Source: Parcubacteria group bacterium Gr01-1014_31 (GTDB lineage Bacteria > Patescibacteriota > Patescibacteriia > Buchananbacterales > GWA2-38-13). Taken from it: DNA of 64,000 nucleotides. Within the stretch, counting starts at the first letter, position 1. Each line of letters starts with the position of its first letter. The translations under genes and the position numbers were made by a program. The DNA lies in assembly GCA_007376135.1 (NCBI GenBank), contig VMFR01000004.1, forward strand, positions 21,745 to 85,744, in the 5' to 3' direction. The notes beneath the pieces were generated by a model. It searched no databases. It saw nothing but the letters and a program-made list of their open reading frames with translations, and was not told where the DNA came from. Shown in pieces: positions 15,831 to 44,570 of the stretch.

Positions 15831-15841
15831 TTCATCGAGAA

Positions 15842-17715: not shown

Positions 17716-18288
17716 TCACTGCCATGAGGCCCCATCGACGCGCCAGCCGGCGGTGTTCTTCAGTAGAGTCACCGTCAATTTTTGGTAAAATTGCTGCCGT
17801 CCCGCACCGGTCCGGGTTTCGGAACGCTGCGTCTGCACCACGATCTGCGCTTCCGTTTCCTCGCCGTTGAGGGCGACGATCTCGGCCGACAGTACTTTGG
17901 TCGTGACGCCGTAGAAGCCGTCACCCAGCAGCAGCTGTTGCTGAGCGGCGCGCGCCGTGGCGGCGAATTGCTCCGTCATCAACGGCTGGAGTTGCTGTAA
18001 ATTCGTGCTCCCGCCGTCCGTGGAAAAACTTCCGTAGCGTTCCGCAAAAGTCTTGGCCAGCGCCTCGAGCGTCGCCTGGGTCTTTGGCTCTTTGGTCACC
18101 GGCGGCTCCACCGGTTGAGTTACCGCGCCCCCCGCGGGCGGCAACGTCGTACCTGCCCCGGGCAAAGGGGACGGCTGCCCCAGACCCGCTGGGCGCGCCG
18201 GGCGAGGAGCGCGCGCCACCAACACCAGCGCCAACACCACCAGCAGCGCCAAGACGATTATAGTGATGATCTTCGTCCGCTTGGTCAT
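17716..18288 (-). CDS. Hypothetical membrane-anchored protein, last gene of the T4SS-like block (possible VirB8/TcpC-like NTF2-fold ectodomain; speculative)
   Basis: ATG at 18288 overlaps the virB4-like stop (ATGA). N-terminal TM IITIIVLALLVVLALVLV, a Pro-rich linker, then a ~120-aa soluble domain. Confidence 0.5.
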   Translation of the reverse strand: MTKRTKIITIIVLALLVVLALVLVARAPRPARPAGLGQPSPLPGAGTTLPPAGGAVTQPVEPPVTKEPKTQATLEALAKTFAERYGSFSTDGGSTNLQQLQPLMTEQFAATARAAQQQLLLGDGFYGVTTKVLSAEIVALNGEETEAQIVVQTQRSETRTGAGRQQFYQKLTVTLLKNTAGWRVDGASWQ

Positions 18289-20252
18289 ACGCTTTCACTC
18301 CGATTATCGGCAGCTTTCCGCGTCCCCGGAGCGCCGGTCTGCTCTTCCATCGACTGTGCAAAGTCCTTTTTCGCCTGCTCGATCTCCAACAACTGCCGCG
18401 GGTCCGACGTGATCAGCTGGTCTTCGGCGTACGACGCGACGACCTTGATGGCCGCGTGCTTGTCGCCGGCAAAGAAGATCCCCTCCCCGACGCCGCACTC
18501 CAGCAGCAGGTACTTTTCCCCGTCGGTCAGGACGAACGTTTTGGCGATGAGGTCGATGGATGCGGACGACTGACGCATCAACACCTGGATGGAACTGTTG
18601 GTGACGATCGCCGATCCATACGGCGAAAGCAGGAAATCATTGACGTCCTGGGTGATGGTGGTCACCCCCAGGTAGTACTTGCGGCAACGCTTCACGAGGG
18701 CATAGATGAACTTTGCCGAGTCCTCGTACTGCATCAGCCACCAGGCTTCATCGATGACCATGATGCGGCGCTTCAGCTCGGAGCGCACGACGTTCCAGAT
18801 ATAATTGATAATGGTGTAAATGGCGATCGGCCGCAGCTCGTCCTCCAAATCACGGACGGAAAAGACCACCAGCTGGTTATGGACGTCGATGTTGGTGGGA
18901 CTGTTGAACAAACCGGAGAACGTCCCCTGCGTGTACTTCTGTAACCGAATGACCAGGTCGCCGGACCCTTCCATGCCTTCGAGCACCTCCTGGAAGTCCT
19001 GCATGATCGGGGCCTCCACCGTGGCCAGGTCGGAATTGGCGGTGATGTCTTTCTTGGCGTAGGTTTCCAGCAGCGCGCGGTCAATGAGCGAGTCTTCCTG
19101 TGGAGAGAAGCCAAGCTTGCCCGAATCGCCGATCGGCTTGCCCAGCATGATGCGCAGCAGCCCCTTGAGCGTGATGACCGCGCCGCGGATGATGTCGCCG
19201 GCGCGCTGGTCGCCGACGGGCCGCGGCAGGTCGAACGGATTGAGTTTGCTCTCCGAAGACAGCGAAATATTGATGTACGTGCCGCCGACCGCGTCGCACA
19301 GATGCTGGTACTCGCGCTCGGGGTCGATGATGATGACGTCGGTTCCTAGCATCAGCGACCGCAGCACCTCCAGTTTAATAGTGTAGCTCTTACCGGCGCC
19401 GGAGGTCGCGAACACCACCATGTTGGCGTTCTGCAGGCTGAAACGGTCGAACAAGATCAAACTGTTGTTGTGGCGGTTGATGCCATACAGCACGCCATCG
19501 TCCGAGGTCAGTTCCGACGAAATGAACGGGAATGAGCTGGCGATCGGCGACGAATTCATGTTGAACGCGATCATCAGCATATCCTCGCCCAACGGCATCG
19601 TCGAGGTGAACCCCTGCTCGGCCTGATAGAGCACCTTGCGCGAGTACACCAGCTTGCTGCCGAACAGCGCCTCCACGTCGTCGGTCAGCCGCTCCAGCTT
19701 CTTACGGTCCTCGGCGTAGACCGTCACATACAGCCCGAACTGGAAAAAATGCTCGATCCCCTGGGTCAAATCGTCCCGCAGCTGCTCGATGTCGCGCAAG
19801 GCCGTTTCGCGAATGGGGTCGCGGGGAGCACCTTTCTCGCGGTCGGCCAGGATCTGTGCCTCAAGGTTGCCGACCCGCTTCTTTAGCTGCTTGAGGATGA
19901 CATCCGACCGCACGGGATAGAAGTACATCGAAATGTCCAACGGCAAATTGAGGTTGATGATAGGCGCGAACCACCCGACCGTAATGTACCTGGGGTACCC
20001 GATGACAAACAGCGTCCGCACGAACAGGTCGCCCAGCATCAGGAACGACGGCTTGACCTGGAAAGCCGCCGGCGCGATCAGATCCCGGATGGAAATAAGA
20101 CCTTCGCGGTAGATCCGCTCCTCCTCGAGGATGATCTTCTCCTCGGTGATCTGCCGCTGCTCCAGGCGCTTACGCTCCTCGGCCGACAGCGTCGGGGTCA
20201 AGGGCTTGGCCGCCTGTCTTTCCTCGCGTTCAATTTGCTGTGGTTTGAACAT
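18285..20252 (-). CDS. virB4: VirB4/TrbE/CagE-like type IV secretion ATPase
   Basis: 655 aa. Walker A VVFATSGAGKSYTIK. Walker B RRIMVIDEAWWLM. Overall length and architecture of VirB4-family (AAA_10/DUF87) proteins. Confidence 0.85.
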   Translation of the reverse strand: MFKPQQIEREERQAAKPLTPTLSAEERKRLEQRQITEEKIILEEERIYREGLISIRDLIAPAAFQVKPSFLMLGDLFVRTLFVIGYPRYITVGWFAPIINLNLPLDISMYFYPVRSDVILKQLKKRVGNLEAQILADREKGAPRDPIRETALRDIEQLRDDLTQGIEHFFQFGLYVTVYAEDRKKLERLTDDVEALFGSKLVYSRKVLYQAEQGFTSTMPLGEDMLMIAFNMNSSPIASSFPFISSELTSDDGVLYGINRHNNSLILFDRFSLQNANMVVFATSGAGKSYTIKLEVLRSLMLGTDVIIIDPEREYQHLCDAVGGTYINISLSSESKLNPFDLPRPVGDQRAGDIIRGAVITLKGLLRIMLGKPIGDSGKLGFSPQEDSLIDRALLETYAKKDITANSDLATVEAPIMQDFQEVLEGMEGSGDLVIRLQKYTQGTFSGLFNSPTNIDVHNQLVVFSVRDLEDELRPIAIYTIINYIWNVVRSELKRRIMVIDEAWWLMQYEDSAKFIYALVKRCRKYYLGVTTITQDVNDFLLSPYGSAIVTNSSIQVLMRQSSASIDLIAKTFVLTDGEKYLLLECGVGEGIFFAGDKHAAIKVVASYAEDQLITSDPRQLLEIEQAKKDFAQSMEEQTGAPGTRKAADNRSESV

Positions 20253-20335
20253 TGATGTTTGGGGCTAGTACCCGGTGCTCTGTGCCCAGTGCTCCGTGCG
20301 TATCGTCACCGTCGTAACTATACTGAGCACATGCG

Positions 20336-21058
20336 CTAGGGCTCGACCTGCAGTTGGTTAAGATCGGCGAGCTTCTGCCGTTCGGACGCCCCGGGGTTAT
20401 AGGTATTGTAATACAGTTCGATCAACCCCTGGGTGTCCAAGAGTGCTGCTTTCAACCCGATACTGCCCAACGACGCCACAACATGGTCAACCCGCTGCAT
20501 CAGATCACGCCGACGCTGCAAGAACCGTTCGCGCGACAGCCGTACTGACCCCGCCGCCTTGAAGACCTCGAGCAGACGCTTGAACCACCCCTTCTGCTTG
20601 TCCGACAGGGGATTATGCGGCACCACGACATAGAAACGCTTGGTCATGATCTCACCCAGCTCCACCAGCTCGGTGACGTAGTTGCGGTACTCGGCGATCT
20701 GGAGTTTCAGCAACTCATTGGTCTGCTCCTTTTCTTTCTGCTCCAAGCGCGTCAGATATCCGCTGATGTTAAGCTTGCGCGACTGAATGAGAATCTGGAG
20801 GGGAAAATCGATGGCATTCAGAAAATTCACGTAGGCCGCAATGATCGCATTTTGCTCTTCCTCCGACTTGAGCGAAAAATTGATGCTCGACACCAACAGC
20901 ACCGCCCGTAAGGTCCCGTCCTTGAGCACGACGCAATCCTCCTTGACCTCGGCGATCGGCAGATGCCGCTGCGTCGACGGCGTTTTCGCCGCCGGACGAG
21001 CCGGCAATCCGGTGGAAGCGGCGTCCTTTGCCCCTGCGGTCTTCTTGGCTTTTGCCAT
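20336..21058 (-). CDS. Hypothetical protein, T4SS-associated (between the PrgI-like and VirB4-like genes)
   Basis: 240 aa with ATG at 21058, an N-terminal Lys/Ala-rich segment and no TM. Its position suggests an apparatus component. Confidence 0.5.
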   Translation of the reverse strand: MAKAKKTAGAKDAASTGLPARPAAKTPSTQRHLPIAEVKEDCVVLKDGTLRAVLLVSSINFSLKSEEEQNAIIAAYVNFLNAIDFPLQILIQSRKLNISGYLTRLEQKEKEQTNELLKLQIAEYRNYVTELVELGEIMTKRFYVVVPHNPLSDKQKGWFKRLLEVFKAAGSVRLSRERFLQRRRDLMQRVDHVVASLGSIGLKAALLDTQGLIELYYNTYNPGASERQKLADLNQLQVEP

Positions 21059-21071
21059 ACTGTTGTGCAGC

Positions 21072-21509
21072 TCAGTCCTGGGCCGTTTCGCCCTCGTAAA
21101 CGCCGCCGGTATCCACGATCAGGGATAATTCCACCAGCCGCGAACTACCCACGAGCGGTTTATGACGGGGCGGTACGATCGGCTTGGTCGTTATTTCCTT
21201 CATCGCCAGCTGGAGCTCGGCCAGCGTCAATCGTTTGTCCCAGAGGGTCAGGCGCGGCCGCTTTATGGTTTGGATGAAATTGAGGATAAAATAATGGACC
21301 GGGCGACCGTTGATCTTGATGAACGCGAACACAATGGTAAACACCGCGATTACCAGTAACCAGAGCAGGAACAAAGTGAAATCGGAAACCTTATACGCCA
21401 GGAACACCAGCCCGCCGGACACCAGTAAAATAATGAACTGGCGCACCGTGATGGGACCGATGACCTTGTCCTCCACGTCGAGGAATTGCGGAACCACGAA
21501 CTGCTGCAT
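21072..21509 (-). CDS. PrgI/VirB3-like small membrane protein
   Basis: 145 aa. MQQFVVPQFLDVEDKVIGPITVRQFIILLVSGGLVF followed by two TM helices. It lies immediately upstream of the VirB4 region, as PrgI-family proteins do in Gram-positive-type T4SS. Confidence 0.55.
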   Translation of the reverse strand: MQQFVVPQFLDVEDKVIGPITVRQFIILLVSGGLVFLAYKVSDFTLFLLWLLVIAVFTIVFAFIKINGRPVHYFILNFIQTIKRPRLTLWDKRLTLAELQLAMKEITTKPIVPPRHKPLVGSSRLVELSLIVDTGGVYEGETAQD

Positions 21510-21613
21510 TACCGTAGTGCTAGGTACTACGTACTATGTGCAAAGTACTTTTCGTGCGCGGATGAACAACTGCCGACCGAACGCACATAGAACTTAGCAC
21601 TTAGAACGTAATA

Positions 21614-22768
21614 CTAAAACCTCAACGTCCGATTAAAATCCGCAACGGCCTCGAACTCGGCAATGCTCAGCACCGGCGTTCCGGGGGTCGCCTGCGCACC
21701 CAGCATCTCGCTGATCGGCCGCTTCTCCGCCATCGCACGACCGGCCGTCGCCGTGTACAGGTTGAATACTTCGCAGGACCGCCAGGCCGCGATTGCTGCC
21801 GCTTTCTGGGCAAAGGACTGCTGCTCAAGCAGAGCGATCTTTTCGCGTAAGTGTTCCGTGGCGCGGCGCGGATCGGCATCCAAGCGGCGGAAGTCCTGCA
21901 GGGTCATCTGACCGATCTCTTCCAGGGGACCGACCAACTGCGGCCGGTACCGCACTTCCGGCACTTGCTCTGCCGCGGGTTCGGCGGCAGGCGCGGGCGG
22001 TTCCGCCAGTCGCGGTAAAGGAGGCAACATTGCCGGCGGCGCGATGGGTAAAACTGCGGGCTCAGGCTGCAGGGACCTCGTCGGCACCAATAACGACGGC
22101 AACTCTGGCGGTAGCGCGGACGGACCCGGCGGAACGGCGACGGACGGACGGCTGATCAACGATGGACGCTTGGGCGGGGGCGGTGGTACCGTCATCCGGG
22201 CGGGAGCGGCGGGCGGGAGCGGCTGCAAGGACATGCGCCGCGGCGGCGCGATCGGCGCGGTTGAGATGGGGATGGAGGGCCCTTGCGGTATGACCCCGCT
22301 GACGTTGGCCTGCAACTGGGCGACGGCCTGGTCCTGCTGCTGACGGCTGCCCTCGCTGAACTGGCGGTAGTATTTTTCAATGACCGCAGAGGCTGTTTCC
22401 GCCTGCTCGGCAGCGAACCCCAACCCGCCGACCTTCACCGGTCGGGCCATCGCTTCGCGAGTTTCAATGGCATCCCGAATGTCTTTGAACCGCGCCAAAA
22501 CCTGGGTGCGCAGCCGTTTCTGCAATATTGGGTCGGGCAATGGCAGCGCCAATTCTTTAATGACCTGGCCAACGAACGATTCCACTGGGGATGGTTGAGG
22601 GGAAAGCGGCACGGGAGGGGATGCGAGAACCGATGGCGCGGCCGTCGGCTGCGCGGCACTGCGCCACGGCTCTACGATGCCGCCGCGCAACACCTTCAGC
22701 TGCCCATCAGCATCCTTGAAGAGTACCTCCTCGCTGCCGGTGAACGGGTTGTATACAGCCTCAGGCAT
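21614..22768 (-). CDS. Proline-rich hypothetical protein
   Basis: Long Pro/Ala low-complexity core flanked by structured N- and C-terminal regions. Start chosen at the ATG at 22768 (ORF-track start 22792 is GTG). Confidence 0.5.
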   Translation of the reverse strand: MPEAVYNPFTGSEEVLFKDADGQLKVLRGGIVEPWRSAAQPTAAPSVLASPPVPLSPQPSPVESFVGQVIKELALPLPDPILQKRLRTQVLARFKDIRDAIETREAMARPVKVGGLGFAAEQAETASAVIEKYYRQFSEGSRQQQDQAVAQLQANVSGVIPQGPSIPISTAPIAPPRRMSLQPLPPAAPARMTVPPPPPKRPSLISRPSVAVPPGPSALPPELPSLLVPTRSLQPEPAVLPIAPPAMLPPLPRLAEPPAPAAEPAAEQVPEVRYRPQLVGPLEEIGQMTLQDFRRLDADPRRATEHLREKIALLEQQSFAQKAAAIAAWRSCEVFNLYTATAGRAMAEKRPISEMLGAQATPGTPVLSIAEFEAVADFNRTLRF

Positions 22769-22779
22769 GAATAGAAGGT

Positions 22780-24072: not shown

Positions 24073-24076
24073 AAAA

Positions 24077-31822: not shown

Positions 31823-31835
31823 GGTTGACAGTTCA

Positions 31836-32837: not shown

Positions 32838-32842
32838 ATGCT

Positions 32843-35800: not shown

Positions 35801-38800
35801 CCGGTCCGGCGCGACTTTCACCAGCAGATTGCTATCGCAGGTACCGGGCCGGCAGATGCCGCCCGCACCGCAGTCGCCGTCCGAGGTGCAGCCCGCCCCC
35901 GGACGCGTCCCGCCGACGCACTGCTGGGGCTGGCAGACCGATGGCGGCTGGCCGGCAACGGTCGCCGTAGTGCTGTATTTGAGTGTCGGGTCGCTGGTGT
36001 CATTCACCAGAACGCATCCCTGCGCCGGGTCATACACCCCGTTGCAGGAACTGCGCTCGATGCTGTCAGCCAGGTAATGGTAGACTCCCGTCGGCTTGAG
36101 GTCGACGTCATCGTAGGTGCCGGCGTTCACGATCTTCACGGTCACTGCCCGATCGCTTTCCAGGACGAAGAATCGGCCGGTGAAGCGCCGGAATGTTGAT
36201 TCCGTTACGCCACCGACCGGCAGCACGACCGTGTCGCCGCGGGTCGCCAGCACCCCGTTCGAGAAGATCGCCACCGAATGGTCGAATTGGGTGAAGATCG
36301 GACGTTTGCTGCCATCGACGGTGGTCACGACGATGGACGCATCGCGCGCCGAATTCTTCACGGACGCGGTGACCGTATAGAGCGTGCCGCCGTTCAACCC
36401 GAGACTCTGCCGGACCTCGGTACCCGCCGGGGTCGGGGCCGTCACCCGCACGGCGGAACTGCGGTTGACTCCCTCGCCGCGCTGGTGGTCGGCCGGAGAC
36501 CCCGCCAAATTCCACGAATTCAGTTTACTCGCGCTGCAGACGGAAAGTTCGCACGCCTCGCCGCCGCAATCGACAGGCCCGCTGCAAAGTGTGCCGTCGG
36601 CACAGAACCGCAACCCGCCGCTGGCCGCCGAGCAATCAGTGTCCAGACGGCAGACCGTTTGCGCGTCATGACTGCAAACCCGGAAGAACCCCTCAAAATT
36701 ACTGTTGGGGAGCATCCCGGCCTGCGGGTCAGACATCGGATCGACGTAGGCGGTGCAACTGGCGTACTCGGCTGGACACTGGCCCACCCACGTGCGGCAG
36801 TCGCCGCCCGATGTTTCGCAGACCCCCGTGCCACAATCGATATTGCTGTCGCACCGCGCACCCTCGAAGGTTCCGCCGCCGCGGCACACTTTAAAACTGC
36901 AATCCGCATCGCTGGTACACACCTGGCCCTCGAGGTCGCCGCCCTGGCAGGTTTTCCCCGGCTGTGTTTGGCCGAATCGCGTGGTAATGGCCGGACAGTC
37001 GGGCACCGACGAGGTGCTGCCGGTGATGAACCAACCGAAATCCTGACGATGCGGGATCTGCTTGTACTCGCAAGTGCGCGCACCCGGATCGCGGAAATAG
37101 ACCGTGCCGACCTGCGGCGAGACATACTCACGGCAACCGACCTGGTCTTCGGTGCACAAGCTGACCCCGTACCGTTCCGGATCGTTGACGAGGTAGCGCG
37201 TTTGGTACCCGCTGATTTGGCCACGCGCGTCCTGGACGGGCAGCCCGAACGCCTGGCAGCCCTCCGCCGCGGCGGCACACTCCTTGCTCAGGTCGCGCAC
37301 ATAGTACGCCAGGGTGTCGGCCGGCACCGTCACTTCTGCCTGCGCATGGCCGACATTGAACGGTTCGGCGAGCGCGCTGGTCGAATTCTTCGTGTCCACA
37401 AATTCCTCGCAGCCCACGGAGCTGTCGCGGCACAGCCGTTCGAACGACTTCAGGTAGGTTACCTGCCCTTTGCTGGTCGTGTATTCCTGGCAGCCGAGCG
37501 CGAACTGCGGAGAATTCGGCGCCGGGAAGCGAACCGGGTCCAGCGTCGGATCGGTGTCGCAGATGAGCGGCGTGCGCCAGGAATTCTTGACGAGGTAGCT
37601 GTACTCCTGCACTTCCGTCAGGGATACGAAGTCCACGGCCACCGGCGTCCCGCCAGCGGTCGTGAGCCGTAGGGTGGCGACCGGGTTGACGCTGGTCACC
37701 AAAATCGGCTCGGTAGTATACTCCTCCCAGTCCGTCAGTACCCGCAGGTTGTTCTTCAGTTCGCAGGAAGTGCCGTCCTGGCCGCAGTCCACCCCCAACA
37801 TGTTCACATTCACCGTGACAATACCGGTCTGCGCCTTGGCCCAGAACGTCAATTGGTAATTCCGTCCGGGAACTAAACGCTCCCGCAGGAACCCGCACCC
37901 GAGCTCCAAATTTTTCGCCCGGCATTCCTGGCCGGTGTTGAAAAGCCGACAGGTATCGGGCTCGGTGGAGGCATCAAAACAGTCAGCGGTCGATCCTGCG
38001 ACACAAGCAGGCAAAGCATTGCTGCAGACAGTGGCCTGCCGCATGGTCTCCATGGTTGTACCGGCGATCGAATGGCCGCCGATGGTCACCGCATCGCTAG
38101 AAATGGAGCCGACCATCCATCCCAACGTGTCGCCATCCTCAAAATCGTCATACCACACCGTGCGCAAATTACCGCCGGCATTGCCGCGGTACTCGCGGCA
38201 GCCGCTCTGTGCGGCCGGGCAGGCGATACTTTCATTGGGTACTGCCTGATAGATACACTCATTGCGCGGCTCGAACTCCTGGCCCCCAATGCCGACGCAG
38301 TCGTCCTGGTGCATGAAGCAGTCACTGCCGCCTACCAGCTGCATGCCGCCCTGTGCCAGGCAGTTGGCAAGCGGCGCATCGATGTCGCCGTCGGTGTCGG
38401 TGTCATCGCCGCACACGCCCCAGTACCCGCCACTGCCTTCGCAGGCCCCTTGCGACGAATCGATGAGGCGGAACGGATGGCATTCGTCTGAGCAGCTCAC
38501 CGTCTCGCGCAGTAACCGATAGTACACATTGCCATTCGTTGCATGGAATTCACGGCAGTTGGGGTTGATGACAGCGTCAAGAGCCGTCGCACACTGCCCC
38601 AGGTCAAGGAACGCATCTACCCAGTCCGGCTCGTCCGTATCGCCAACCGTCCCGCCGCTGACCGCCGGAACGCGGTCGGCAACGTCCCGCCGCAGTGTGT
38701 AGCTCTTCAGCTGATAGCCGTTCACTTCCGAGCCGACCCACGTGTAGTAGGTGCGGCAGACATTGGCGTCGGGCTTGGTGCACTGGCGCAGATACGTATA

Positions 38801-41800
38801 GCTGCCCCGCCCCTCGCCGCCGCGTGCCACCTCGTCAAGATTGGTGAACTGCTCACAGCCGGCAAAACGAGCCTCGCACGAACGGGCCGTGTCCGCGATG
38901 AAATACAGGAAGTCGGGCTGCCGCGCGGATGGGACCGCATCGGCAAAGAACGTCTCCGTCTGCGAAAACGCGCTGTAGTCCACGCACGCGGCCGGGCACA
39001 TATCGCCCGCCGTCGTGATACCCGGCAACGGCGGTTCGCCGTTGGTCGGCGTGTAGCGTTCGCACCCGACCTCGTCGGCGCGGCAGACCTGGCTGTAACG
39101 GCTGCACGCCGAGTGGTCGGTCTGCGGGTCGCCGGTACACCCAAGGTACGCGGGCGACGTTTTCAGATGCACCACGGGGTTGCTGATGAAGTCCCGGTAC
39201 GCCAACGCCGCGGGCTCCGCGCGCGGAGCGACCTCGACGATGTGCACTCCGTCCACGGCAATGTCGCTGGCCGCGGTCGAACCAAAGCGGAGACGGAATT
39301 CACGATGGCCGCTCGGTGCCGCCATCGGCTCGAAGAGGAAACGCTGCCATTCCGCGGTCAGCGGCAGCGGGCTGTGGCAGCTGCCTGCCCCCGCCGTAGT
39401 GCAATCCGCCTCGCGCCGGCAGGCCGGATTGGCGCCACCGTCGCACACCCCCAACCCGTCCGCGATCAATTCCAGACTGCGCGCCGTACCGCCGCTATCC
39501 ACGCTGTCCAGCCACGCCCGCCAGGTGACATTCGCGGTATTGGCCTTGGCGAAAAATGATACCTGGTAGGTCGCGCCGGATTTCAGGAGCGGCAAGGCGG
39601 CGGTGCGAAAATCTTCCGACGTGGCGTCACTGTCGGTGTAGTGCAGGTACGTACTGCCGAATGCCGCGCCTTCCGTTTCGCGCGCCACGATGTCGCCGGC
39701 GGTGTCCCCGCCATGCCGTTCCCAATTTGGCGGGAAACGGCTCGACGGGTCTGGCCACTGCTCAAAACTAGAATTGTAGATGAAATTAACCAAGCCCTGG
39801 GTGGCCGGGATGAGCGCGCGGCAGCCGCTTTCCTCCTGGCTGCAGGCGGCAATATCGCGGTCGAAGTAGAGCTTGCTGCCGTCGGCATCCTGGGTGCCTT
39901 CAAGGTAGACGGTCACATCCTGCAACGGACAAGCGCGCTCCAGCCGGACCTCATCGAACCAGACGGTTCCCACCGGATTAATGCCCGCGACGGCCTCCAC
40001 CACCATCCGCACGCGCCCGCCCGCCAGCGGATCGGAAGTGGTGCAGCTGACGGTTGCCCACTGCCCCTTGGCATAATCCGCGTCGATGGTACTGCAACCC
40101 CCGCTCGAGGACGGCACCACCTCAACGTAGGCACGGCCGAACTGTAGCGTGCTATAAATGCGCGCCGTCAAGGTGTAGGGCGGGTTCGCGGTCGGTGGCA
40201 CGGAAAGCGGATCGGATTGCGCGACCATCTGCGCAACGGTGCCGTCGGGATCGATCCGCACGGCGTAGTTGCCGACCGCCACTTGGTTGTTGACGCCGGC
40301 GATCCGTTGCCAACGGCTGCCGCCGCCGACCACGTCGTTGGTCGACCAACTGGCCGCGAAGATGACGCGGCCCGCCTGCACGCTCAAGTCGGCGCTCTCG
40401 GTCTCAAATCCGCTGTTGTCGGCAAAACTTTCCGCGGCCCCGCAGCGCGGTACCGTGCAAGCGACCGCCCCGTAGGGGATCTGACAACTGATACCCGTTG
40501 CTACGTCAGTCGCCAGGCAACTCGCCCCCTGGCAGGTTTCTCCGCGCGGGCATTCGGCGTCCTGGGCGCAGGAGCGGCCGCTCACGCTGCAGCGCCCCAG
40601 CTGCTGGCACGGTTTACGCACGCGCTCGGCTTCGCCGACGCACGACCACACCCCCGAACCCACATTGAAATCACGGCAGTACCACTGGCACCCGACGGCA
40701 TTGGCATCGCAGCCGCCGGCATCCAACGTGTCGCCGAGGTAGCTGACCGCGCGGTTGGCGTCATCCTCGTAGCTCCGGCAGCTGTCGTACTGCGGCGGAC
40801 ACTGGGTCCCGGCGAATTTCCAGACCGGGGTCTCCTGAGTGCACAGACCGTAGGCGCGACAGGTGCCGTTCGCATCCTCCACGATGCAGGATCGCGTATC
40901 GGTGCAGGTATTTTCGCGGGACACGGTCCGGCGTTCGAACTGGTAGCTGGGCAGCTGCCCCGTCAACGGGTCGGCGGGCTTGTTGCGCTGCACGATCGTC
41001 TCTTCGCGCGAGTAGACGCTGGTAAATTTATCCCCGGGCCCGGTCAGCCGGCAGTAGGTCTCGGGGGCCTTGAGCACCCAGCCGTCATCCACCAGCCCGT
41101 AGAACGGCGAATCGGGGTTACCGAAAGCGCGGATGATATCGTTGAGCGAGTAGGCCTGCCGCTGCTCCAGTTGGCCGATATACGCGGCCGCCAACTCCCA
41201 ACCGACGGGCAGGATGCGGTACTTGCGCAGAATGACGAATGACGAGTGCGCGTACCCATCATTGGCGGTCGGCTGCGTGCCCGCGCGCGTGTAGCCGAAG
41301 GTCGAACCCGGACCATCGGCGAACAACAATCCTTCCTGGATCGCCTGGCGCACCGTCAGTTTGCGGTCAATGGCCGTCTTGAATGATTGGTTGATAACGC
41401 CGTCGCCGACCAGGAGCGAGGTCACGTCCATTCGATTGAGGCGAGGGTCGCCAATGGCGAGGTTGGTGGAAAAGAACGCCTCAAAATCCTGGCGCGCGTC
41501 GGTCCGCAGTGCATTGGGGTCGGCGGTCGGCGAACGCAGACCCTCCAATTTGCTCCAGTTGAACTTATCCGGCTTGCTGCTGCCGCCGCCAAATCCCTTA
41601 GTGTACAGCCGCTGCAGCATCTTGGATACCAGCGTGGAGGTGAACGCGTCCACCGCATCAGCCACGGCCTCGCCGGTATACGTGAAGTAGACGTCACCCA
41701 GCGTACCGGGGGAAAGCGCATCGGCAGACCACTCCTTAACCAGCGACCCAGGCGTCAAAATATTTCCGGCGATGTCCACCACGGGCTTCAGCCCCTGGCT

Positions 41801-42589
41801 TTCCAGCCGGCTTAAGATCTGCTCCTCGTGGGCCTCGGCCTGCTTGGAGTAGAAGCTCGACCATACTCCGATGCCGATGCCAAAGTCATTCTGGTTGGGC
41901 GAGAACGAATCATGGATGATCTGGTCGAGCTTGGGCGGATTGTCGATGAACTGCTCCCAGTTGTCAGCCAGCTGTGTGAACGTACACGATGGTTCCGCCG
42001 GCGGCTGCGCGGCGTCCAAAAGCCCCAGGGACAGCTTTAACTTCAGGTCAAGCCGCGGCCGGCAGAGGTTGGGCAGCCCGACGCCTTCAGCGAACGACTG
42101 GATGAAGTGTCCGGCGGCCGAATCGCCGACGCGCGACAGGTACGCACCCCAGCCTTCCGTTTCATACAACGGCTTTTTTCCTTTACCACCCTCAGCTAAT
42201 TGCGTCGCCGTATCCACGGCCAGCCGCCGCAGAAAATAGCTCAAGGCGTTCTTATAGGCTACGGCCGCGGCGGTCTTCGCATACTTCTCCGCATTTTTTT
42301 TGATCCACTCCCAAACTTGCTGGAACAGATTCGGCTCGTCGCGATTATCCACTTCCTGGCCGGTGCGCGGCTGCGTTGGCGGGCTATCAAAGGAGCCGCC
42401 ATCACCGCTAAAAGTTGCCTCCCCGCCGCCATCAAAAGACCCGGCCCCGAAGCTTCCTTGGGCGAACGCAACCGGAGCAAGCGTGAAACTCTGAAGAGTA
42501 AACAGCGCAAGTAGCGACGCAGCACACCATTTCCGCCAGCGCAGGGCGCGACGGCGCGACGATCGAACCGAATATACCATCAGTCTCAT
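32843..42589 (-). CDS. Giant (3,248 aa) cysteine-rich secreted or surface protein
   Basis: ATG at 42589 overlaps the upstream stop (ATGA). N-terminal signal peptide (LLALFTLQSFTLAPVAFAQG). Hundreds of Cys residues in CxxC / C-x(n)-C patterns throughout, Gly/Thr/Asp-rich, no TM beyond the signal. Confidence 0.7.
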   Translation of the reverse strand: MRLMVYSVRSSRRRALRWRKWCAASLLALFTLQSFTLAPVAFAQGSFGAGSFDGGGEATFSGDGGSFDSPPTQPRTGQEVDNRDEPNLFQQVWEWIKKNAEKYAKTAAAVAYKNALSYFLRRLAVDTATQLAEGGKGKKPLYETEGWGAYLSRVGDSAAGHFIQSFAEGVGLPNLCRPRLDLKLKLSLGLLDAAQPPAEPSCTFTQLADNWEQFIDNPPKLDQIIHDSFSPNQNDFGIGIGVWSSFYSKQAEAHEEQILSRLESQGLKPVVDIAGNILTPGSLVKEWSADALSPGTLGDVYFTYTGEAVADAVDAFTSTLVSKMLQRLYTKGFGGGSSKPDKFNWSKLEGLRSPTADPNALRTDARQDFEAFFSTNLAIGDPRLNRMDVTSLLVGDGVINQSFKTAIDRKLTVRQAIQEGLLFADGPGSTFGYTRAGTQPTANDGYAHSSFVILRKYRILPVGWELAAAYIGQLEQRQAYSLNDIIRAFGNPDSPFYGLVDDGWVLKAPETYCRLTGPGDKFTSVYSREETIVQRNKPADPLTGQLPSYQFERRTVSRENTCTDTRSCIVEDANGTCRAYGLCTQETPVWKFAGTQCPPQYDSCRSYEDDANRAVSYLGDTLDAGGCDANAVGCQWYCRDFNVGSGVWSCVGEAERVRKPCQQLGRCSVSGRSCAQDAECPRGETCQGASCLATDVATGISCQIPYGAVACTVPRCGAAESFADNSGFETESADLSVQAGRVIFAASWSTNDVVGGGSRWQRIAGVNNQVAVGNYAVRIDPDGTVAQMVAQSDPLSVPPTANPPYTLTARIYSTLQFGRAYVEVVPSSSGGCSTIDADYAKGQWATVSCTTSDPLAGGRVRMVVEAVAGINPVGTVWFDEVRLERACPLQDVTVYLEGTQDADGSKLYFDRDIAACSQEESGCRALIPATQGLVNFIYNSSFEQWPDPSSRFPPNWERHGGDTAGDIVARETEGAAFGSTYLHYTDSDATSEDFRTAALPLLKSGATYQVSFFAKANTANVTWRAWLDSVDSGGTARSLELIADGLGVCDGGANPACRREADCTTAGAGSCHSPLPLTAEWQRFLFEPMAAPSGHREFRLRFGSTAASDIAVDGVHIVEVAPRAEPAALAYRDFISNPVVHLKTSPAYLGCTGDPQTDHSACSRYSQVCRADEVGCERYTPTNGEPPLPGITTAGDMCPAACVDYSAFSQTETFFADAVPSARQPDFLYFIADTARSCEARFAGCEQFTNLDEVARGGEGRGSYTYLRQCTKPDANVCRTYYTWVGSEVNGYQLKSYTLRRDVADRVPAVSGGTVGDTDEPDWVDAFLDLGQCATALDAVINPNCREFHATNGNVYYRLLRETVSCSDECHPFRLIDSSQGACEGSGGYWGVCGDDTDTDGDIDAPLANCLAQGGMQLVGGSDCFMHQDDCVGIGGQEFEPRNECIYQAVPNESIACPAAQSGCREYRGNAGGNLRTVWYDDFEDGDTLGWMVGSISSDAVTIGGHSIAGTTMETMRQATVCSNALPACVAGSTADCFDASTEPDTCRLFNTGQECRAKNLELGCGFLRERLVPGRNYQLTFWAKAQTGIVTVNVNMLGVDCGQDGTSCELKNNLRVLTDWEEYTTEPILVTSVNPVATLRLTTAGGTPVAVDFVSLTEVQEYSYLVKNSWRTPLICDTDPTLDPVRFPAPNSPQFALGCQEYTTSKGQVTYLKSFERLCRDSSVGCEEFVDTKNSTSALAEPFNVGHAQAEVTVPADTLAYYVRDLSKECAAAAEGCQAFGLPVQDARGQISGYQTRYLVNDPERYGVSLCTEDQVGCREYVSPQVGTVYFRDPGARTCEYKQIPHRQDFGWFITGSTSSVPDCPAITTRFGQTQPGKTCQGGDLEGQVCTSDADCSFKVCRGGGTFEGARCDSNIDCGTGVCETSGGDCRTWVGQCPAEYASCTAYVDPMSDPQAGMLPNSNFEGFFRVCSHDAQTVCRLDTDCSAASGGLRFCADGTLCSGPVDCGGEACELSVCSASKLNSWNLAGSPADHQRGEGVNRSSAVRVTAPTPAGTEVRQSLGLNGGTLYTVTASVKNSARDASIVVTTVDGSKRPIFTQFDHSVAIFSNGVLATRGDTVVLPVGGVTESTFRRFTGRFFVLESDRAVTVKIVNAGTYDDVDLKPTGVYHYLADSIERSSCNGVYDPAQGCVLVNDTSDPTLKYSTTATVAGQPPSVCQPQQCVGGTRPGAGCTSDGDCGAGGICRPGTCDSNLLVKVAPDRTCARWLDCISSRKQVSFRTGQVQEFCQQIATCDRLDSISGRCSSYPTEELQALTFDAGSVQLSQFFSGYAKVGFQWDADTKVDGYFPYGVMTQRKVCVAGNRGAACLEDADCHTGDERDGVCQPVLQVGTNPTEDLIFESCRVYPSGSAPRWTAQAPVDTGDEPAKSQIVDINDPLTDPLTGSLLSQTSLAEASECHYVQGRSEFLGLYGFCVEKDPRSPYLCLNWLPVDELTGGWVGITGWRGNLRASTFMCNESVILETRRPGRFELNHCYQTDFGWWGMFNPIGAIAETAANHAERNSMTCGTVSCPPGYLPEQRRSKCGNFFEPGIRCRWYCTPDQSDLYLTDTESNQWYDYKAREDASDRPTKKHLMFCPKCGATGLVLWDPEDPTTIFGFNSEEQRRVPTYWQRACHEVVQVVDEDGAQRGWQERLETVQDFLSADYQVPTLNYKVSDLAAPFGVIGRNFVGDPTKWPLVSDRVQAADFGHPYEYPGDQAGQVYFDHFYDRWSAAAGRLPNDSVEVASFHTARERLKRLFATSYGDWRWNGSAYETYTVPTNYCAGGPRSGDSCAPGSNDCVDSTSVCVKSGGYCAYYPTGEPENAETALNITCTSDTACAGNPKIFCATGRCGSFGDGNDLNDSEVPCRTTADCPGGGSETCDITGFIYGRCDDASPTYPLRGVACFNDEMCNTKSDGSGVGTCVGEDPDGQAPANGTYGYCSAGVNVLGACQNIGDCWNPAAHQASCVGQCSAGSAKNPGTCITDVECQVSGSCQETTAWRPPADRCRDNIRPSRFTETPLTDPDGSGDWCGVSPEVFNVKIENAEAPIFYIVGQGNVTLSFNVKVDNDQLPLRLLRVRWDMENRDTMVTDNDWRSGLRDKSDPADPFQFTHTYKYVQTTCDKGVLPGGSGTPDGYCDFQVGVLVRDNWCWCSNAIFADVNTTNLACNTCPDDGTPAIADDNNGAWVEARSALVRVCDSARPELCGR

Positions 42590-43404
42590 GGGCTTTCCGT
42601 GCCTCCTCGCAACGCTTCGAGCATCATCTGCTGGAGCTGTTCATCGGACAGTCGGTCAAGCGTTTCCTTGGGCAACCCCTGCTGGAGCAGCAACTGACGT
42701 AGGCCATCACCGGTGGGCGGTTGACCATCCGGCGCAGAGGGCGCCGTCCCGGACGCGGCCACGCCGGAGGACGCTTGCTCCTGTACGACTTCTCGGTATA
42801 CCTCTTCCAACTGCTGGTCGGAAAATCCGGCAAGCAATTCATCCGAAAGCCCAGCGCGCCGCAGCTGGTCGCGGACCGCAACTGGGTCGAATCCCGGGGC
42901 GCCGACCGAAGGGATGGCCGCTGGAGTTGGCGCAATTTCCGGTGCGACCGCCGTCACACAGGTTTGCCCCTCAGGGCAAGTCGGGTCCGTTCCCGCGGTC
43001 ACTTCGGCGCGGTCGGGCTGGCCGTCGGAATCGGTGTCTTCAAGATACGCCGACGTGCCAAGCGCCTGTTCCTCAAGGTCGGTCAGACCATCGCCATCGG
43101 TATCGGGAGCCTCACCGAGCGCCAACGATGCCGGGTTGAGCGCCGTAAAATCGCTCAAGCTCGGCGGCGCCAACTGGGAAATCCTTGCCACCGGGAAGCG
43201 CAGGCTGGCGCGCAGCTGCACCACCCCTACCACCAGCGTCAACACGCCAAATCCGATGGTCAGCGGCGCCACAACATTGGCGAAACGAAAACGTTCCCTG
43301 CGGTTCGCTTTGGGGCGCGAACCGGCGCGACCGTTCCCCGACTGGCGGTAAATCTCCTCCAGTACCGTCAGCGTACGTTCCGAATTTTGCCCGCTCAAAG
43401 ACAT
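42586..43404 (-). CDS. Membrane-anchored protein with thrombospondin-type-3-like Ca-binding Asp repeats. First gene of the block.
   Basis: TM FANVVAPLTIGFGVLTLVVGVV. Repeats DTDGDGLTDLEE and DTDSDGQPDRAE. A duplicated C-terminal helical motif: LSDELLAGFSDQQLEEV and LSDEQLQQMMLEAL. Confidence 0.55.
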   Translation of the reverse strand: MSLSGQNSERTLTVLEEIYRQSGNGRAGSRPKANRRERFRFANVVAPLTIGFGVLTLVVGVVQLRASLRFPVARISQLAPPSLSDFTALNPASLALGEAPDTDGDGLTDLEEQALGTSAYLEDTDSDGQPDRAEVTAGTDPTCPEGQTCVTAVAPEIAPTPAAIPSVGAPGFDPVAVRDQLRRAGLSDELLAGFSDQQLEEVYREVVQEQASSGVAASGTAPSAPDGQPPTGDGLRQLLLQQGLPKETLDRLSDEQLQQMMLEALRGGTESP

Positions 43405-43488
43405 TTTTGCCCGCTCAAATATCGAGAAATTACGTCAGAAAAACACCCAAAATACGGGGTTTGTACACCATCCCCAGAATATGAAGCA

Positions 43489-43497
43489 ATTATAACA
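43489..43497 (-). promoter_or_regulatory. Candidate extended -10 promoter (TGTTATAAT on minus) for the 26-kb minus-strand block
   Basis: The reverse complement of plus 43489-43497 is TGTTATAAT. It lies ~85 nt upstream of the ATG at 43404, and the -35 is weak. Confidence 0.4.
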
Positions 43498-43541
43498 AAT
43501 TTCCGACTATGCGGAAACAAAAAAAGACCCCCGAAAGGGCC

Positions 43542-44420: not shown

Positions 44421-44570
44421 ACCCGGTAGGACAACGGTCAAACGGTATTGTTCTCAAAATGAATTTAAGTACTCCCGTCCTGGTTGAGGTGTTCTACCAC
44501 CCGTCCGTTGTACTGCCGGGCATACCCTTAACCACCACGGTGTTCCCATGGTATACTCGTGGCAGACAAC

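Follow-up and report, generated by a model that had tools for sequence, protein, structure and literature searches.

Among the T4SSs of the Patescibacteria, the type that concerns us here was described in 2025 (PMC12102498), unbeknown to the sequence-only reading from which this analysis follows. In these systems, the VirB4s form a monophyletic group inside MPF_FATA and are accompanied by TrsD, PrgI and VirB6; most of the clusters carry no relaxase, and the VirB8 homologues are few and nearly all found in ABY1 (PMC12102498). A homologous cluster of the Saccharibacteria was found by Tn-seq to be essential for epibiotic growth, and it has no recognisable coupling or relaxase proteins (PMC10633639; reviewed in PMC12857230). 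We found no cultured member of ABY1 in the literature that was searched.

In this work, we examine a block of ten genes within a 64-kb stretch of DNA (hereafter the window) from Parcubacteria group bacterium Gr01-1014_31, a groundwater Patescibacteria/CPR MAG, which supports the earlier placing of the block in an episymbiotic small-genome lineage. We consider, with a probability of about 0.85, that it encodes a chromosomal, vertically inherited T4SS of the Patescibacteria clade, which descends from the MPF_FATA conjugation machinery of monoderms and takes the shape usual in ABY1. The block encodes a cytoplasmic-membrane T4SS core, namely a two-part VirB4, a VirB3/PrgI anchor, an extended VirB6 and a VirB8-like NTF2 protein. 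The evidence supports a non-conjugative, pared-down, VirB4-powered envelope machine.

Organisation and expression signals of the block

The ten tightly packed minus-strand genes first proposed are all present, as ORFs lying where they had been placed, between 17716 and 43404 (Table 1). Both ATGA stop/start overlaps are borne out by the sequence: g01 and g02 share one at 42586/42589, g09 and g10 the other at 18285/18288. The other junctions read from the sequence measure 5 nt (g02 to g03), 4 nt (g04 to g05) and 13 nt (g07 to g08), while two depend on the start codon: g04 overlaps g03 by 11 nt from a TTG at 31846 or follows it after 13 nt from an ATG at 31822, and g06 overlaps g05 from a GTG at 22792 or follows it after 11 nt from an ATG at 22768. 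The remaining gaps had been given as 5-10 nt, which is not so for two of them: 83 nt (20253-20335) separate g08 from the VirB4 ATPase gene, and 104 nt precede PrgI. This last spacer is predicted to fold into an imperfect hairpin and may be an element of mRNA processing or stability, setting the 'giant' half of the block against its 'ATPase' half.

Upstream of g01, the extended -10 motif TGTTATAAT is found on the minus strand as proposed; a two-hexamer promoter scan returned no -35/-10 pair at this site. The string TGNTATAAT occurs three times in the 64 kb against 0.27 expected, a count that was reached in 0 of 100 shuffles, and its three copies are all intergenic and all on the minus strand. 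A terminator-like site (43543-43524) sets KsgA apart from the block.

Table 1. Features of the block and of its surroundings in the 64-kb window
Feature	Position	Strand	Evidence or remark
RadA/Sms	9025-10377	+	context gene; also in sister locus L084
RecG	10387-12474	-	context gene; also in sister locus L084
ComFC-type phosphoribosyltransferase, double zinc ribbon	16952..17665	-	PF00156 E=8e-7, PF18912
g10, VirB8-like and bitopic: TM helix at the N-terminus, then a disordered linker and an NTF2-like domain	17716..18288	-	AF2 + Foldseek
g09, VirB4 ATPase, lacking the first quarter of canonical VirB4	18285..20252	-	NF045971, PF19044, Walker motifs
g08, TrsD-like, detached VirB4 N-terminal domain	20336..21058	-	NCBIfam profile matches
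g07, PrgI/VirB3-like, two TM	21072..21509	-	PF12666
Intergenic spacer, imperfect long hairpin	21510..21613	-	MFE -36.2 kcal/mol, z = -2.9 vs shuffles
g06, 392 aa, Pro-rich (14.8%), conserved C-terminal domain	21614..22792	-	locus conservation
g05, 430 aa, soluble, no TM, no Cys	22780..24072	-	tblastn conservation
g04, extended VirB6, 2,589 aa	24077..31846	-	orthologue profile matches, composition, TM pattern
g03, 333 aa, charged N-terminal half, 2-3 C-terminal TM helices	31836..32837	-	translation, TM segments
g02, 3,248 aa, Sec-exported, Cys-rich	32843..42589	-	signal peptide, composition, homologues
g01, 272 aa, one TM (~41-68), extracellular Ca-binding TSP3 repeats	42586..43404	-	PF18884, TM segment
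Extended -10 promoter motif, 5' of g01	43489..43497	-	sequence reading
Terminator-like hairpin + T-run straight after KsgA	43524..43543	-	8 pairs, then TTTTTGTTTC
Candidate VirB2-like pilin (uncertain)	56056..57075	-	PF18895 T4SS_pilin E=7.2e-5, 23.2 bits, cut-off 26.6
DsbA-like thioredoxin	57079..57942	-	PF13462 E=8.6e-29, PF01323 E=5e-19

A two-part VirB4 and its membrane partners

The VirB4-type ATPase is well established: g09 matches NF045971 (conju_CD1110) at E=1e-100 over model positions 154-730 of 752 and PF19044 at E=8e-30, and the Walker A (GAGKS) and Walker B (DEAW) motifs can be read in its translation. It is 70-98% identical to the VirB4s of Uhr-, Magasanik-, Falkow- and Buchananbacteria MAGs of class ABY1. 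The small gene g08 matches NF045975 (VirB4_plasma, E=8e-12), NF041427 (TrsD, E=1.2e-8) and positions 2-104 of NF045971, and its orthologues bear PF26593 (TraC-like). Since g08 and g09 cover distinct parts of the same model, and since the TrsD-like domain has its own gene, apart from that of the ATPase, in 77 of the 80 related loci, the VirB4 of this system is encoded as two polypeptides. The PrgI/VirB3-like protein g07 was also recovered as proposed, with two TM segments and a match to PF12666 (E=1.4e-8; 35.6 bits, above the curated cut-off of 27), and it is present in 75/80 related loci.

The last gene of the block, g10, gave an AF2 model with a pLDDT of 85.2. When this model was searched with Foldseek against the PDB, as had been suggested, it matched VirB8-type NTF2 domains, those of CagV (7e-5), the PrgL VirB8 domain (1.3e-4), TcpC (1.6e-4) and R388 TrwG/VirB8 (2.3e-4), together with Brucella and Agrobacterium VirB8, but all of them rank below the NTF2-like domains of plastid ARC6/PARC6, the NTF2 fold being widespread. 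The gene directly follows VirB4 in 60/80 related loci, and its product is probably a VirB8-like bitopic NTF2 protein. The identities of g08 and g10 had escaped the sequence-only reading.

A vertically inherited locus without recognisable conjugation functions

No family match to a relaxase, a VirD4/T4CP, a VirB11, a lytic transglycosylase (VirB1) or an integrase was obtained in the ORFs scanned over the 64 kb, which were all but a few small or overlapping ones. Thus, the absence of VirD4, VirB11, relaxase and lytic transglycosylase that had been noted from the sequence holds for the scanned ORFs, although as regards the relaxase and T4CP it applies to a 64-kb window of a contig of at least 167 kb, and either could lie elsewhere on the genome. 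As for VirB2-like pilins, the window holds just one weak, sub-cut-off candidate, 12.6 kb upstream of the block, with a signal peptide, a two-TM hairpin and a Cys-rich C-terminal extension.

The comparison with CPR genomes that had been called for shows that 60-77 of the 80 related loci share the order VirB6 - PrgI - TrsD - VirB4 - VirB8-like - ComFC. The longer order UvrA-LeuRS-FemAB-Sua5-KsgA-small-giant-VirB6-...-PrgI-TrsD-VirB4 also occurs in one Buchananbacteria genome, and other genomes keep the same order with changed housekeeping genes upstream of KsgA; the conserved housekeeping neighbours are UvrA, LeuRS, FemAB, Sua5 and KsgA, as well as RecG and RadA. ComFC lies immediately downstream on the same strand, as noted from the start, 50 nt from the block, and it occupies this position in 66/80 related ABY1 loci. 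Because the gene order, housekeeping neighbours included, is conserved across ABY1 genera, the locus is a vertically inherited core locus, fixed in its place beside KsgA and ComFC across the class, and not an ICE.

A degraded or domesticated ICE that keeps its relaxase, coupling protein and integrase beyond the window, or that has lately lost them, could be suspected from the VirB4, whose best matches are conjugative MPF_FATA-type models (CD1110 family), from the PrgI, TrsD and VirB8-like parts, which are those of Gram-positive conjugation systems, and from the fact that the 64 kb are only part of the genome. This is however very improbable, and largely refuted by synteny: the conserved order and flanks go with a VirB4 identity of 70-98% across ABY1 genera, the GC content of the block (0.58-0.65) is inside the overall range of the window, and none of the three missing functions has a match in the scanned ORFs. 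Published counts point the same way, with only 109 relaxase homologues, in 103 of 3,035 genomes, and a nearest relative of the same class for 99.3% of the VirB4s (PMC12102498). The first impression that the block looks less like a conjugative element is thus supported both by its vertical conservation and by the lack of a relaxase and of a coupling protein in the window.

The extended VirB6 and the accessory genes

The profile searches that had been proposed matched the VirB4 and PrgI families directly, and that of VirB6 through orthologues. The g04 protein is laid out as a signal peptide, a VirB6/TrbL-like domain of about five TM helices (~1-440), a middle region and the coiled-coil-like tail (~1200-2400) that had rightly been recognised, A/E/Q/R/K/L making up 60-71% of the residues past ~1200. 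The polytopic domain itself gave no Pfam match even at E<=0.1, so its identification as VirB6 relies on its orthologues: PF04610 (TrbL/VirB6) is matched by 11 of 41 orthologous domains, which are 28-37% identical to that of g04 (best E=6.4e-6), and PF19590 (TrbL_3) is carried by the orthologue in L082. The N-terminal domain is kept in 56/80 related loci. Orthologues of g04 range in size from 810 to 1,832 aa, and the sister genome has one of 2,825 aa; L085 encodes the coiled-coil part as a gene of its own (1,407 aa). The positive-inside rule favours a cytoplasmic location of the extension, on a side of the membrane that would be poorly suited to contact with the host.

Two of the accessory genes, g05 and g06, both coding for soluble proteins, are conserved genes of this T4SS locus. 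Matches to g05 were found by tblastn at the same position in 16/80 loci (84% identity in L084), and it has no relatives in Pfam, NCBIfam, PHROG or the PDB; g06, with no matches in the families scanned, is matched in 71/80 loci, each time between VirB6/g05 and PrgI. As to g03, a lineage-specific accessory gene, it has no family matches and no tblastn match in any of the 80 related loci, and its positional counterparts differ (a 165-aa gene in L082, absent in L081).

The giant Cys-rich protein and its small partner

The giant secreted protein g02 was correctly perceived as Cys-rich: it has a Sec-type signal peptide and 155 Cys (4.8%). It matches CBM_4_9 under the cut-off (E=1.5e-4), and PF02018 is listed for most of its 59 homologues (2,305-3,628 aa). 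Its N-domain is found in 1,316 cluster representatives, always N-terminal, in proteins mostly of 2,500-3,400 aa; residues 100-600 and 1150-1900 are the conserved stretches. It belongs to a large Patescibacteria family of ~3,000-aa Cys-rich secreted proteins, of which no mention was found in the literature searched. The DsbA-like protein encoded next to the pilin candidate is possibly an oxidative-folding factor for many Cys-rich exported proteins. A DsbA-like gene is also found near the giant gene in L088.

The product of g01 matches PF18884 (TSP3_bac, E=5.6e-6). A gene of 225-295 aa lies directly 5' of the giant in L081, L082, L083, L086, L087 and L088; tblastn matched g01 in the first two, and in L082, L083 and L086 the product of the small gene matches TSP3 weakly or faintly. 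The g01 protein is the conserved partner of the giant, whose family is usually accompanied by a small membrane protein, often one with TSP3 repeats.

The machine had been thought to be dedicated to the giant proteins, which it may or may not be. The family is often just upstream of the extended VirB6 (4/6 sampled family loci are next to a T4SS), and no more than 2.2 kb separate the giant from VirB6 in at least 21 of the 47 testable ABY1 loci. However, the small-protein and giant pair stands apart from T4SS genes in L083 and L088, and a giant with a Sec signal peptide need not be a T4SS substrate. From these same observations, one could hold that g01-g03, perhaps with the VirB6 tail, are an independent Sec-dependent adhesin module that just happens to stand between KsgA and the T4SS, the more so as the L088 pair still adjoins KsgA and a structured spacer separates g06 from PrgI. 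We regard such unrelated halves as a doubtful, though real, possibility, considering that g02 and VirB6 are 0-230 nt apart in ten loci, that all the genes are on one strand, with overlaps or gaps of 4-13 nt from g01 to g06, and that VirB6, a T4SS component, sits in the 'giant' half.

Possible functioning and cargo

In the reading that we prefer, that of a non-conjugative Patescibacteria T4SS, VirB4 hexamers would sit on a platform of VirB6 and VirB8, to which PrgI and the TrsD-like domain would dock them, and would energise either the assembly of a channel spanning the single membrane and the wall or the transport through it. The disulfide-rich, CBM-bearing g02, held or assisted by g01, would be the extracellular part that contacts the host, through adhesion or by engaging the wall, and the VirB6 extension, of more than 2,000 residues, would serve as a scaffold. 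Such a machine would move macromolecules where the cell meets its host bacterium, either exporting protein or importing DNA or nucleotides that would be passed to ComFC, RadA and RecG.

The import alternative, a ComB-like or Ced-like T4SS taking up host or environmental DNA and handing the strand to these three proteins, seems unlikely to us. It draws on the recurrent position of ComFC, on RadA and RecG being 5-8 kb from the block both here and in L084, and on a weak and partial match to the NCBIfam model of CedB, an ATPase of archaeal DNA import (E=1.8e-12), which is however far under the cut-off (46.7 vs 700 bits). Neither relaxase nor T4CP is seen in the window, and the H. pylori ComB system is likewise not known to use either. 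Yet adjacency is weak functional evidence in reduced, highly syntenic genomes, and a weak terminator-like hairpin with a T-run (17684-17670) lies between g10 and ComFC. In the Saccharibacteria, moreover, competence needs type IV pili and ComEC, and deletion of comEC ends competence and not viability, while the T4SS is essential (PMC10633639, PMC12857230), so that its essential role there is not transformation.

Comparison with the published systems

According to the published survey, KsgA abounds in the surroundings of virB4, and the T4SS loci of ABY1 commonly include comF, recG and radA, an association that was taken to suggest functional coordination and that also speaks for DNA uptake; its authors likewise concluded that the systems are non-conjugative (PMC12102498). 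The locus described here matches these T4SSs, down to the comF/recG/radA context that is specific to ABY1 and to its KsgA neighbour (PMC12102498), and it goes beyond the published system in the giant Cys-rich family, which stands here in one tight block with the T4SS genes.

Components of the T4SS core

The block comprises ten consecutive genes on the minus strand (17716-43404), an arrangement first proposed from the sequence and borne out by the ORF listing. It encodes the inner-membrane core of a type IV secretion system (T4SS), made of a split VirB4, a VirB3, a VirB6 and a VirB8-like protein, without DNA-processing functions; the lineage is host-dependent and has this core at a fixed place in its chromosome. 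In profile searches the VirB4 ATPase matches NF045971 conju_CD1110 (E=1e-100) and PF19044 (E=8e-30), and its translation contains the Walker A (GAGKS) and Walker B (DEAW) motifs that the sequence-only reading had pointed out. This protein aligns only to positions 154-730 of the 752 of NF045971, and the neighbouring gene product, which also matches NF041427 TrsD (E=1.2e-8) and the mycoplasma VirB4 model NF045975 (E=8e-12), covers positions 2-104 of the same model. As the two proteins occupy separate stretches of one model, VirB4 is split here into a TrsD-like N-domain protein and an ATPase body. The window proteins were compared by tblastn with 80 related loci: the TrsD-like gene is found in 77 of them, its orthologues carrying the TraC-like domain PF26593. 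A terminase match of the TrsD-like P-loop-associated domain, the sole match that PHROGs gave among the unknown proteins, was discarded as spurious. The predicted PrgI/VirB3-like protein matches PF12666 above the cut-off (E=1.4e-8), has two TM segments and is present in 75 of the 80 loci.

The last gene of the block was recognised through its predicted structure, sequence profiles finding such proteins only rarely. In the AF2 model, a disordered linker joins the N-terminal TM helix (residues 3-25) to an NTF2-like domain of three helices and four strands. Its top Foldseek matches are the NTF2-like domains of ARC6/PARC6, and it also matches, with probability 1.0 and E=7e-5 to 1e-3, CagV, the VirB8 domain of PrgL, TcpC, R388 TrwG and the Brucella and Agrobacterium VirB8. 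A sequence-profile search of the PDB returned no relatives, so the likeness to VirB8 is a structural resemblance and homology is not proven. We call the protein VirB8-like because its gene directly follows that of VirB4 in 60/80 related loci, of which it is thus a regular member in ABY1. This structural identification of a VirB8-like component in the ABY1 T4SS is an addition of the present analysis.

Features of the block and of its surroundings
Feature	Position	Strand	Remarks
ORF	395-991	+	
ORF	1223-3007	+	
RadA	9025-10377		near T4SS block
RecG	10387-12474		near T4SS block
tRNA-Arg	13573-13648		
DUF4238 gene	14516-15613	-	E=6e-37
tRNA-Ser	15841-15929		
Ribosome hibernation factor gene	16023-16343		
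GIY-YIG nuclease	16412-16735	-	E=1e-15
tRNA-Ser	16774-16860		
ComFC	16952-17665		50 nt downstream of block
VirB8-like protein	17716-18288	-	AF2 model, pLDDT 85, built from 36 homologues
VirB4 ATPase	18285-20252	-	
Spacer ahead of VirB4 gene	20253-20335	-	83 nt; folds to stable hairpin, -28.7 kcal/mol, z = -2.0
TrsD-like protein	20336-21058	-	
PrgI/VirB3-like protein	21072-21509	-	
Spacer ahead of PrgI gene	21510-21613	-	104 nt; folds to stable hairpin, -36.2 kcal/mol, z = -2.9
Pro-rich protein	21614-22792	-	392 aa, 14.8% Pro; same position in relatives
Soluble protein	22780-24072	-	430 aa; same position in relatives
VirB6 with long tail	24077-31846	-	2,589 aa; signal peptide, then about five TM segments
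Accessory protein	31836-32837	-	lineage-specific; C-terminal TM helices
Giant protein	32843-42589	-	3,248 aa; Sec signal peptide; 155 cysteines
TSP3 membrane protein	42586-43404	-	single TM; TSP3 calcium-binding repeats
TGTTATAAT	43489-43497	-	proposed block promoter
Hairpin and T-run	43543-43524	-	after KsgA, just upstream of block
KsgA	43542-44441		upstream of block
276-aa paralogue	45617-46447	-	
TGGTATAAT motif	46483-46491		of the 276-aa gene
MopE-type protein	47538-49265	-	575 aa, secreted
218-aa paralogue	55147-55803	-	
Candidate VirB2-like pilin	56056-57075	-	339 aa; PF18895 E=7.2e-5, below cut-off; about 36 kb from virB4, 12.6 kb from block
DsbA-like thioredoxin	57079-57942	-	

Transcription of the block

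The sequence contains both ATGA overlaps that had been described (42586/42589 and 18285/18288). The remaining junctions had been given as gaps of 5-10 nt: most junctions are indeed overlaps or short gaps (4-13 nt), but two spacers are far longer. They bracket the PrgI-TrsD pair, each folds into a stable hairpin, and they might have a role in processing, attenuation or stability.

The proposed promoter TGTTATAAT lies on the minus strand where it had been placed. The extended -10 pattern TGNTATAAT occurs in three copies in the 64 kb, for 0.27 expected, and none of 100 shuffles reached three; all the copies in the window are intergenic and on the minus strand, and the pattern is probably a genuine promoter signal in Gr01-1014_31. 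A two-hexamer scan found no -35 partner for the block promoter, which is thus backed by an extended -10 motif standing by itself. The hairpin and T-run that follow KsgA suggest that the block probably starts its own transcript.

A core chromosomal locus of ABY1

The VirB8-like protein is 100% identical to a protein of Parcubacteria group bacterium Gr01-1014_31. The VirB4 has 8,000 matches at E<=1e-20 and is 70-98% identical to those of named Patescibacteria MAGs, its placement in the Patescibacteria clade being judged by this percent identity. Identity reaches 98% in the sister MAG GCA_030648715.1 and 70-90% in MAGs of Uhr-, Magasanik-, Falkow- and Buchananbacteria, all of which we take to belong to the GTDB class ABY1. 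By tblastn, the gene order in the related loci is VirB6, the 430-aa soluble protein, the Pro-rich protein, PrgI, TrsD, VirB4, the VirB8-like protein and ComFC. The individual genes occur in 56-77 of these 80 loci, with the exception of that of the soluble protein, which is detectable by sequence in 16/80. A 601-kb Buchananbacteria contig has the order of the window from UvrA through LeuRS, FemAB, Sua5, KsgA, a small protein, the giant and VirB6 to PrgI, the TraC-like protein and VirB4. In other genomes, the order of the KsgA-to-VirB4 core is kept and the housekeeping genes upstream of KsgA have changed. The sister genome is identical onward through HPF, RecG, RadA and ClpB.

On the strength of this synteny with housekeeping genes across ABY1, the reading as an ICE was rejected: the block is a core chromosomal locus and is inherited vertically. 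Its GC content (0.58-0.65) falls inside the overall range of the window, in whose scanned ORFs no integrase was found. The sequence-only reading had also stressed what the block lacks, and indeed the scanned ORFs of the 64-kb window yielded neither a relaxase or coupling protein nor a VirB11 or lytic transglycosylase, and they had no match to the MOB relaxase, VirD4, TcpA or FtsK-like families. ComFC does lie immediately downstream, as had been noticed. Its adjacency, together with that of RadA and RecG, would suit a machine that imports DNA and hands it to these three proteins. This alternative is attractive but, in our judgement, rather unlikely, and it is weakened by the Saccharibacteria data, which separate competence from T4SS essentiality.

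Two stretches next to this end of the block differ between relatives. The GIY-YIG nuclease gene, which sits between a tRNA-Ser and the ribosome hibernation factor gene, has matches in 5/80 related loci, and it looks like an insertion since the ComFC-HPF spacing is about 200 nt in the locus of the sister genome. The DUF4238 gene, flanked by tRNA-Arg and tRNA-Ser, falls within a low-GC stretch (14001-16000; 0.466, for about 0.6 elsewhere), and its place is taken in the sister genome by another gene, of 320 aa; the stretch looks like a small horizontally acquired island. Further left, two long ORFs of odd composition, rich in R, G, A and V, have no family match. They probably do not code and merely lie opposite real genes where GC content is high, so that gene calls at the left end need care.

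The extended VirB6

The window's own VirB6 copy gave nothing in Pfam at E<=0.1. The VirB6 identity that had been proposed is supported indirectly, through its orthologues: 11 of 41 orthologous N-domains match PF04610 TrbL/VirB6 (best E=6.4e-6), which points to a VirB6 by profile similarity, and PF19590 TrbL_3 is recorded for one orthologue (locus L082). A PDB profile search with the N-domain returned chance thermonuclease matches only. All the TM segments lie within residues 28-355 and are followed by a large hydrophilic C-terminal region. The 60 residues past the last TM segment contain 10 K/R, which suggests, by the positive-inside rule and as a rough estimate, a cytoplasmic tail.

Throughout ABY1, VirB6 carries an extension. 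Its orthologues measure 810-1,832 aa, and in this sublineage the protein is longer still, with 2,589 aa in the window and 2,825 aa in the sister genome. The idea that misassembly or a frameshift had produced the long ORF was rejected because the latter orthologue is 87% identical over residues 781-2420. A relative with 91% identity in VirB4 has the extension divided between genes of 1,487 and 1,407 aa, the coiled-coil part being the 1,407-aa gene. The searchable literature, which excludes most subscription journals, holds no mention of an extended VirB6 in ABY1.

The soluble and Pro-rich proteins that follow VirB6 belong to no detectable family, and a PDB profile search with the former gave no meaningful relatives either. 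Between their orthologues, the relative with the divided VirB6 carries an inserted 124-aa gene (6927-7301 of that locus) that matches 23S_rRNA_IVP (PF05635). The accessory protein on the other side of VirB6 has no match in any of the 80 related loci.

The giant protein and its partner

The giant protein belongs to a family of which 59 word-indexed homologues measure 2,305-3,628 aa. It resembles CBM_4_9 weakly and below the cut-off (E=1.5e-4), and most homologues are recorded with PF02018. Clustering at 50% leaves 1,316 representatives of the conserved N-terminal domain, which is always N-terminal in them, in proteins mostly of 2,500-3,400 aa. A PDB profile search with the giant found no meaningful relatives. 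The AF2 model of residues 60-620 is poor (pLDDT 59.9, confident about 389-560 only), and a Foldseek search of the PDB with it gave no match below E=0.5. No prior description of this family in CPR T4SS loci was found in the searchable literature, most subscription journals excluded.

Each of the six family loci sampled has a gene of 225-295 aa immediately upstream of the giant, and three of these small genes have weak or faint TSP3 matches. VirB6 and the remaining T4SS genes come after the giant in 4/6 loci. In the other two, the pair of small protein and giant is away from the T4SS, one pair still adjoining KsgA. At the scale of the class, the C-terminus of a family member lies 0-2.2 kb from VirB6 in at least 21 of the 47 ABY1 loci with sufficient upstream sequence, a lower bound because the C-terminus of the giant is poorly conserved. 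That the giant module is an independent adhesin is possible, though somewhat unlikely in our judgement. The interest of the block lies in its conserved link to the giants and to an extended VirB6, and in a VirB8-like protein seen by structure.

Other genes for exported proteins were observed further upstream. The candidate VirB2-like pilin has a signal peptide, a VirB2/T4SS_pilin-like two-TM hairpin and a Cys-rich C-terminal extension, and its gene is directly downstream of that of a DsbA-like thioredoxin; the two may be the pilin of the T4SS and an oxidative-folding helper. A DsbA-like gene is also close to the giant gene in another related locus (L088). Proteins of 276 and 218 aa share a clearly paralogous N-terminal region that includes a TM helix (consensus 'RT.TR.AT...LIV.QV..AAA.AVP.G.FAAALG..S.R...GQVRIA') and have Cys-containing C-terminal domains, with a Pro/Thr linker in the 276-aa copy, whose gene has its own TGGTATAAT motif. 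Neither has a Pfam match, and they may form a lineage-specific surface protein family. The 575-aa protein, a further Cys-containing surface protein near the T4SS, combines a Cys-rich metal-binding motif of the MopE type with fibronectin-III-like repeats, and its gene shares about 150 nt with the start of the longest FemAB ORF.

A possible mechanism and its meaning

VirB4 would dock through PrgI and the TrsD-like domain onto a VirB6/VirB8 platform and would power transport or assembly across the single membrane. The Sec-exported, disulfide-rich, CBM-bearing giant and its TSP3 partner would be the host-contact part, and the DsbA-like gene would fit the oxidative folding of Cys-rich exported proteins.

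A much bolder proposal is that in ABY1 a very large apparatus for host contact has the T4SS as its base and imports host DNA or nucleotides, which we regard as improbable (about 0.15, jointly with its details). The extracellular part would then be the undescribed family of disulfide-rich proteins of ~3,000 aa, which would bind carbohydrate and be held by the TSP3 protein, the scaffold would be the coiled-coil VirB6 extension of >2,000 residues, and the imported DNA or nucleotides would be processed by the co-located ComFC, RadA and RecG. If true, a ComB-like uptake machine would have been reinvented in a monoderm symbiont, and the T4SS would not be a minimal channel.

Across ABY1, the T4SS core is kept alongside the VirB8-like protein (60/80 loci), and many genomes combine this core with an extended VirB6 and with secreted Cys-rich proteins of ~3,000 aa, from a large family that is unannotated. 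The VirB8-like protein, the giants and the extended VirB6 offer concrete candidates for cargo, or for the part of the machine that is extracellular or in contact with the host.

Comparison with known systems

The ComB system of Helicobacter pylori and the archaeal Ced system resemble the block in being T4SS without relaxase or coupling protein, in genomic association with the competence and recombination genes ComFC, RadA and RecG. ComB, however, is diderm and MPF_T-type and has VirB7, VirB9 and VirB10. Systems of the ComB type are defined by a requirement for transformation, in which they work with ComEC and ComF. As for Ced, the likeness of VirB4 to CedB is a weak partial ATPase match, and the possible link of the block with DNA uptake is one of gene adjacency.

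The extended VirB6 proteins include TraG of the F plasmid, RvhB6 of Rickettsiales and those so named in a recent review (PMC12857230); Anaplasma VirB6-4 reaches 4,322 aa (PMC7648143). They share with ours a polytopic VirB6/TrbL-like N-domain that continues into a hydrophilic C-terminal part of very large size, in the T4SS of a host-dependent, genome-reduced bacterium. In contrast, the extension has no detectable sequence similarity to theirs, the tail is here of low complexity, A/E/Q/R-rich and coiled-coil-like, and the organism is monoderm.

The Gram-positive conjugative MPF_FATA systems (pGO1/pSK41 Trs, pIP501 Tra, pCF10 Prg, the CD1110 family of C. difficile CTn2 and C. perfringens pCW3 Tcp) are close in several respects. 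The best VirB4 model is conju_CD1110, the TrsD-like protein is apart from VirB4 as in pGO1, VirB3 is PrgI/TcpE-like, the VirB8-like NTF2 domain is structurally near PrgL and TcpC, and the architecture is monoderm, without VirB7, VirB9 or VirB10. In contrast to them, no relaxase, no T4CP of the PcfC, TraJ or TcpA type, no VirB1-like hydrolase (PrgK, TraG) and no PrgB-type adhesin was found, and the locus is off any mobile element and syntenic with housekeeping genes.

The closest likeness is with the Patescibacteria systems, a new branch of the T4SS superfamily according to a 2025 review (PMC12857230). In Southlakia epibionticum (class Saccharimonadia), the only species in which a requirement for epibiotic growth is shown, the homologous cluster SEML1_0006-0019 is essential for this growth by Tn-seq and has no recognisable coupling or relaxase proteins (Wang et al. 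2023, PMC10633639). The Patescibacteria VirB4 clade is monophyletic and nested in MPF_FATA; TrsD is its commonest accompanying component, PrgI/VirB3 and VirB6 are also found, and the few VirB8 homologues are nearly all from ABY1 (Quinonero-Coronel et al. 2025, Microb Genom, PMC12102498). In the same survey, relaxases are almost absent, coupling proteins are seldom near virB4, KsgA is abundant there, and comF, recG and radA are common in ABY1 T4SS loci (PMC12102498). VirB2-like pilin genes near virB4 are frequent in the Patescibacteria systems, not universal.

Our block has a similar VirB4, a separate adjacent TrsD-like gene, PrgI/VirB3, VirB6 and a VirB8-like protein; it is likewise chromosomal, with KsgA upstream, comF, recG and radA close, and relaxase and coupling protein missing nearby. 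It differs in that no VirB2-like pilin array lies in or beside it, the one weak candidate being 12.6 kb away, and in that no VirB1-like hydrolase was found. Its first two genes, for the TSP3 membrane protein and the Cys-rich secreted giant of 3,248 aa, and a VirB6 of 2,589 aa set it apart as well. Since the VirB4 clade, TrsD, PrgI, VirB6, VirB8-like, KsgA and comF/recG/radA features are all present, the block is the system of PMC12102498. The initial idea of a non-conjugative VirB4-powered machine is therefore supported, for a type of system already described there; the window adds no new kind of system, and the finding is a member of a described one.
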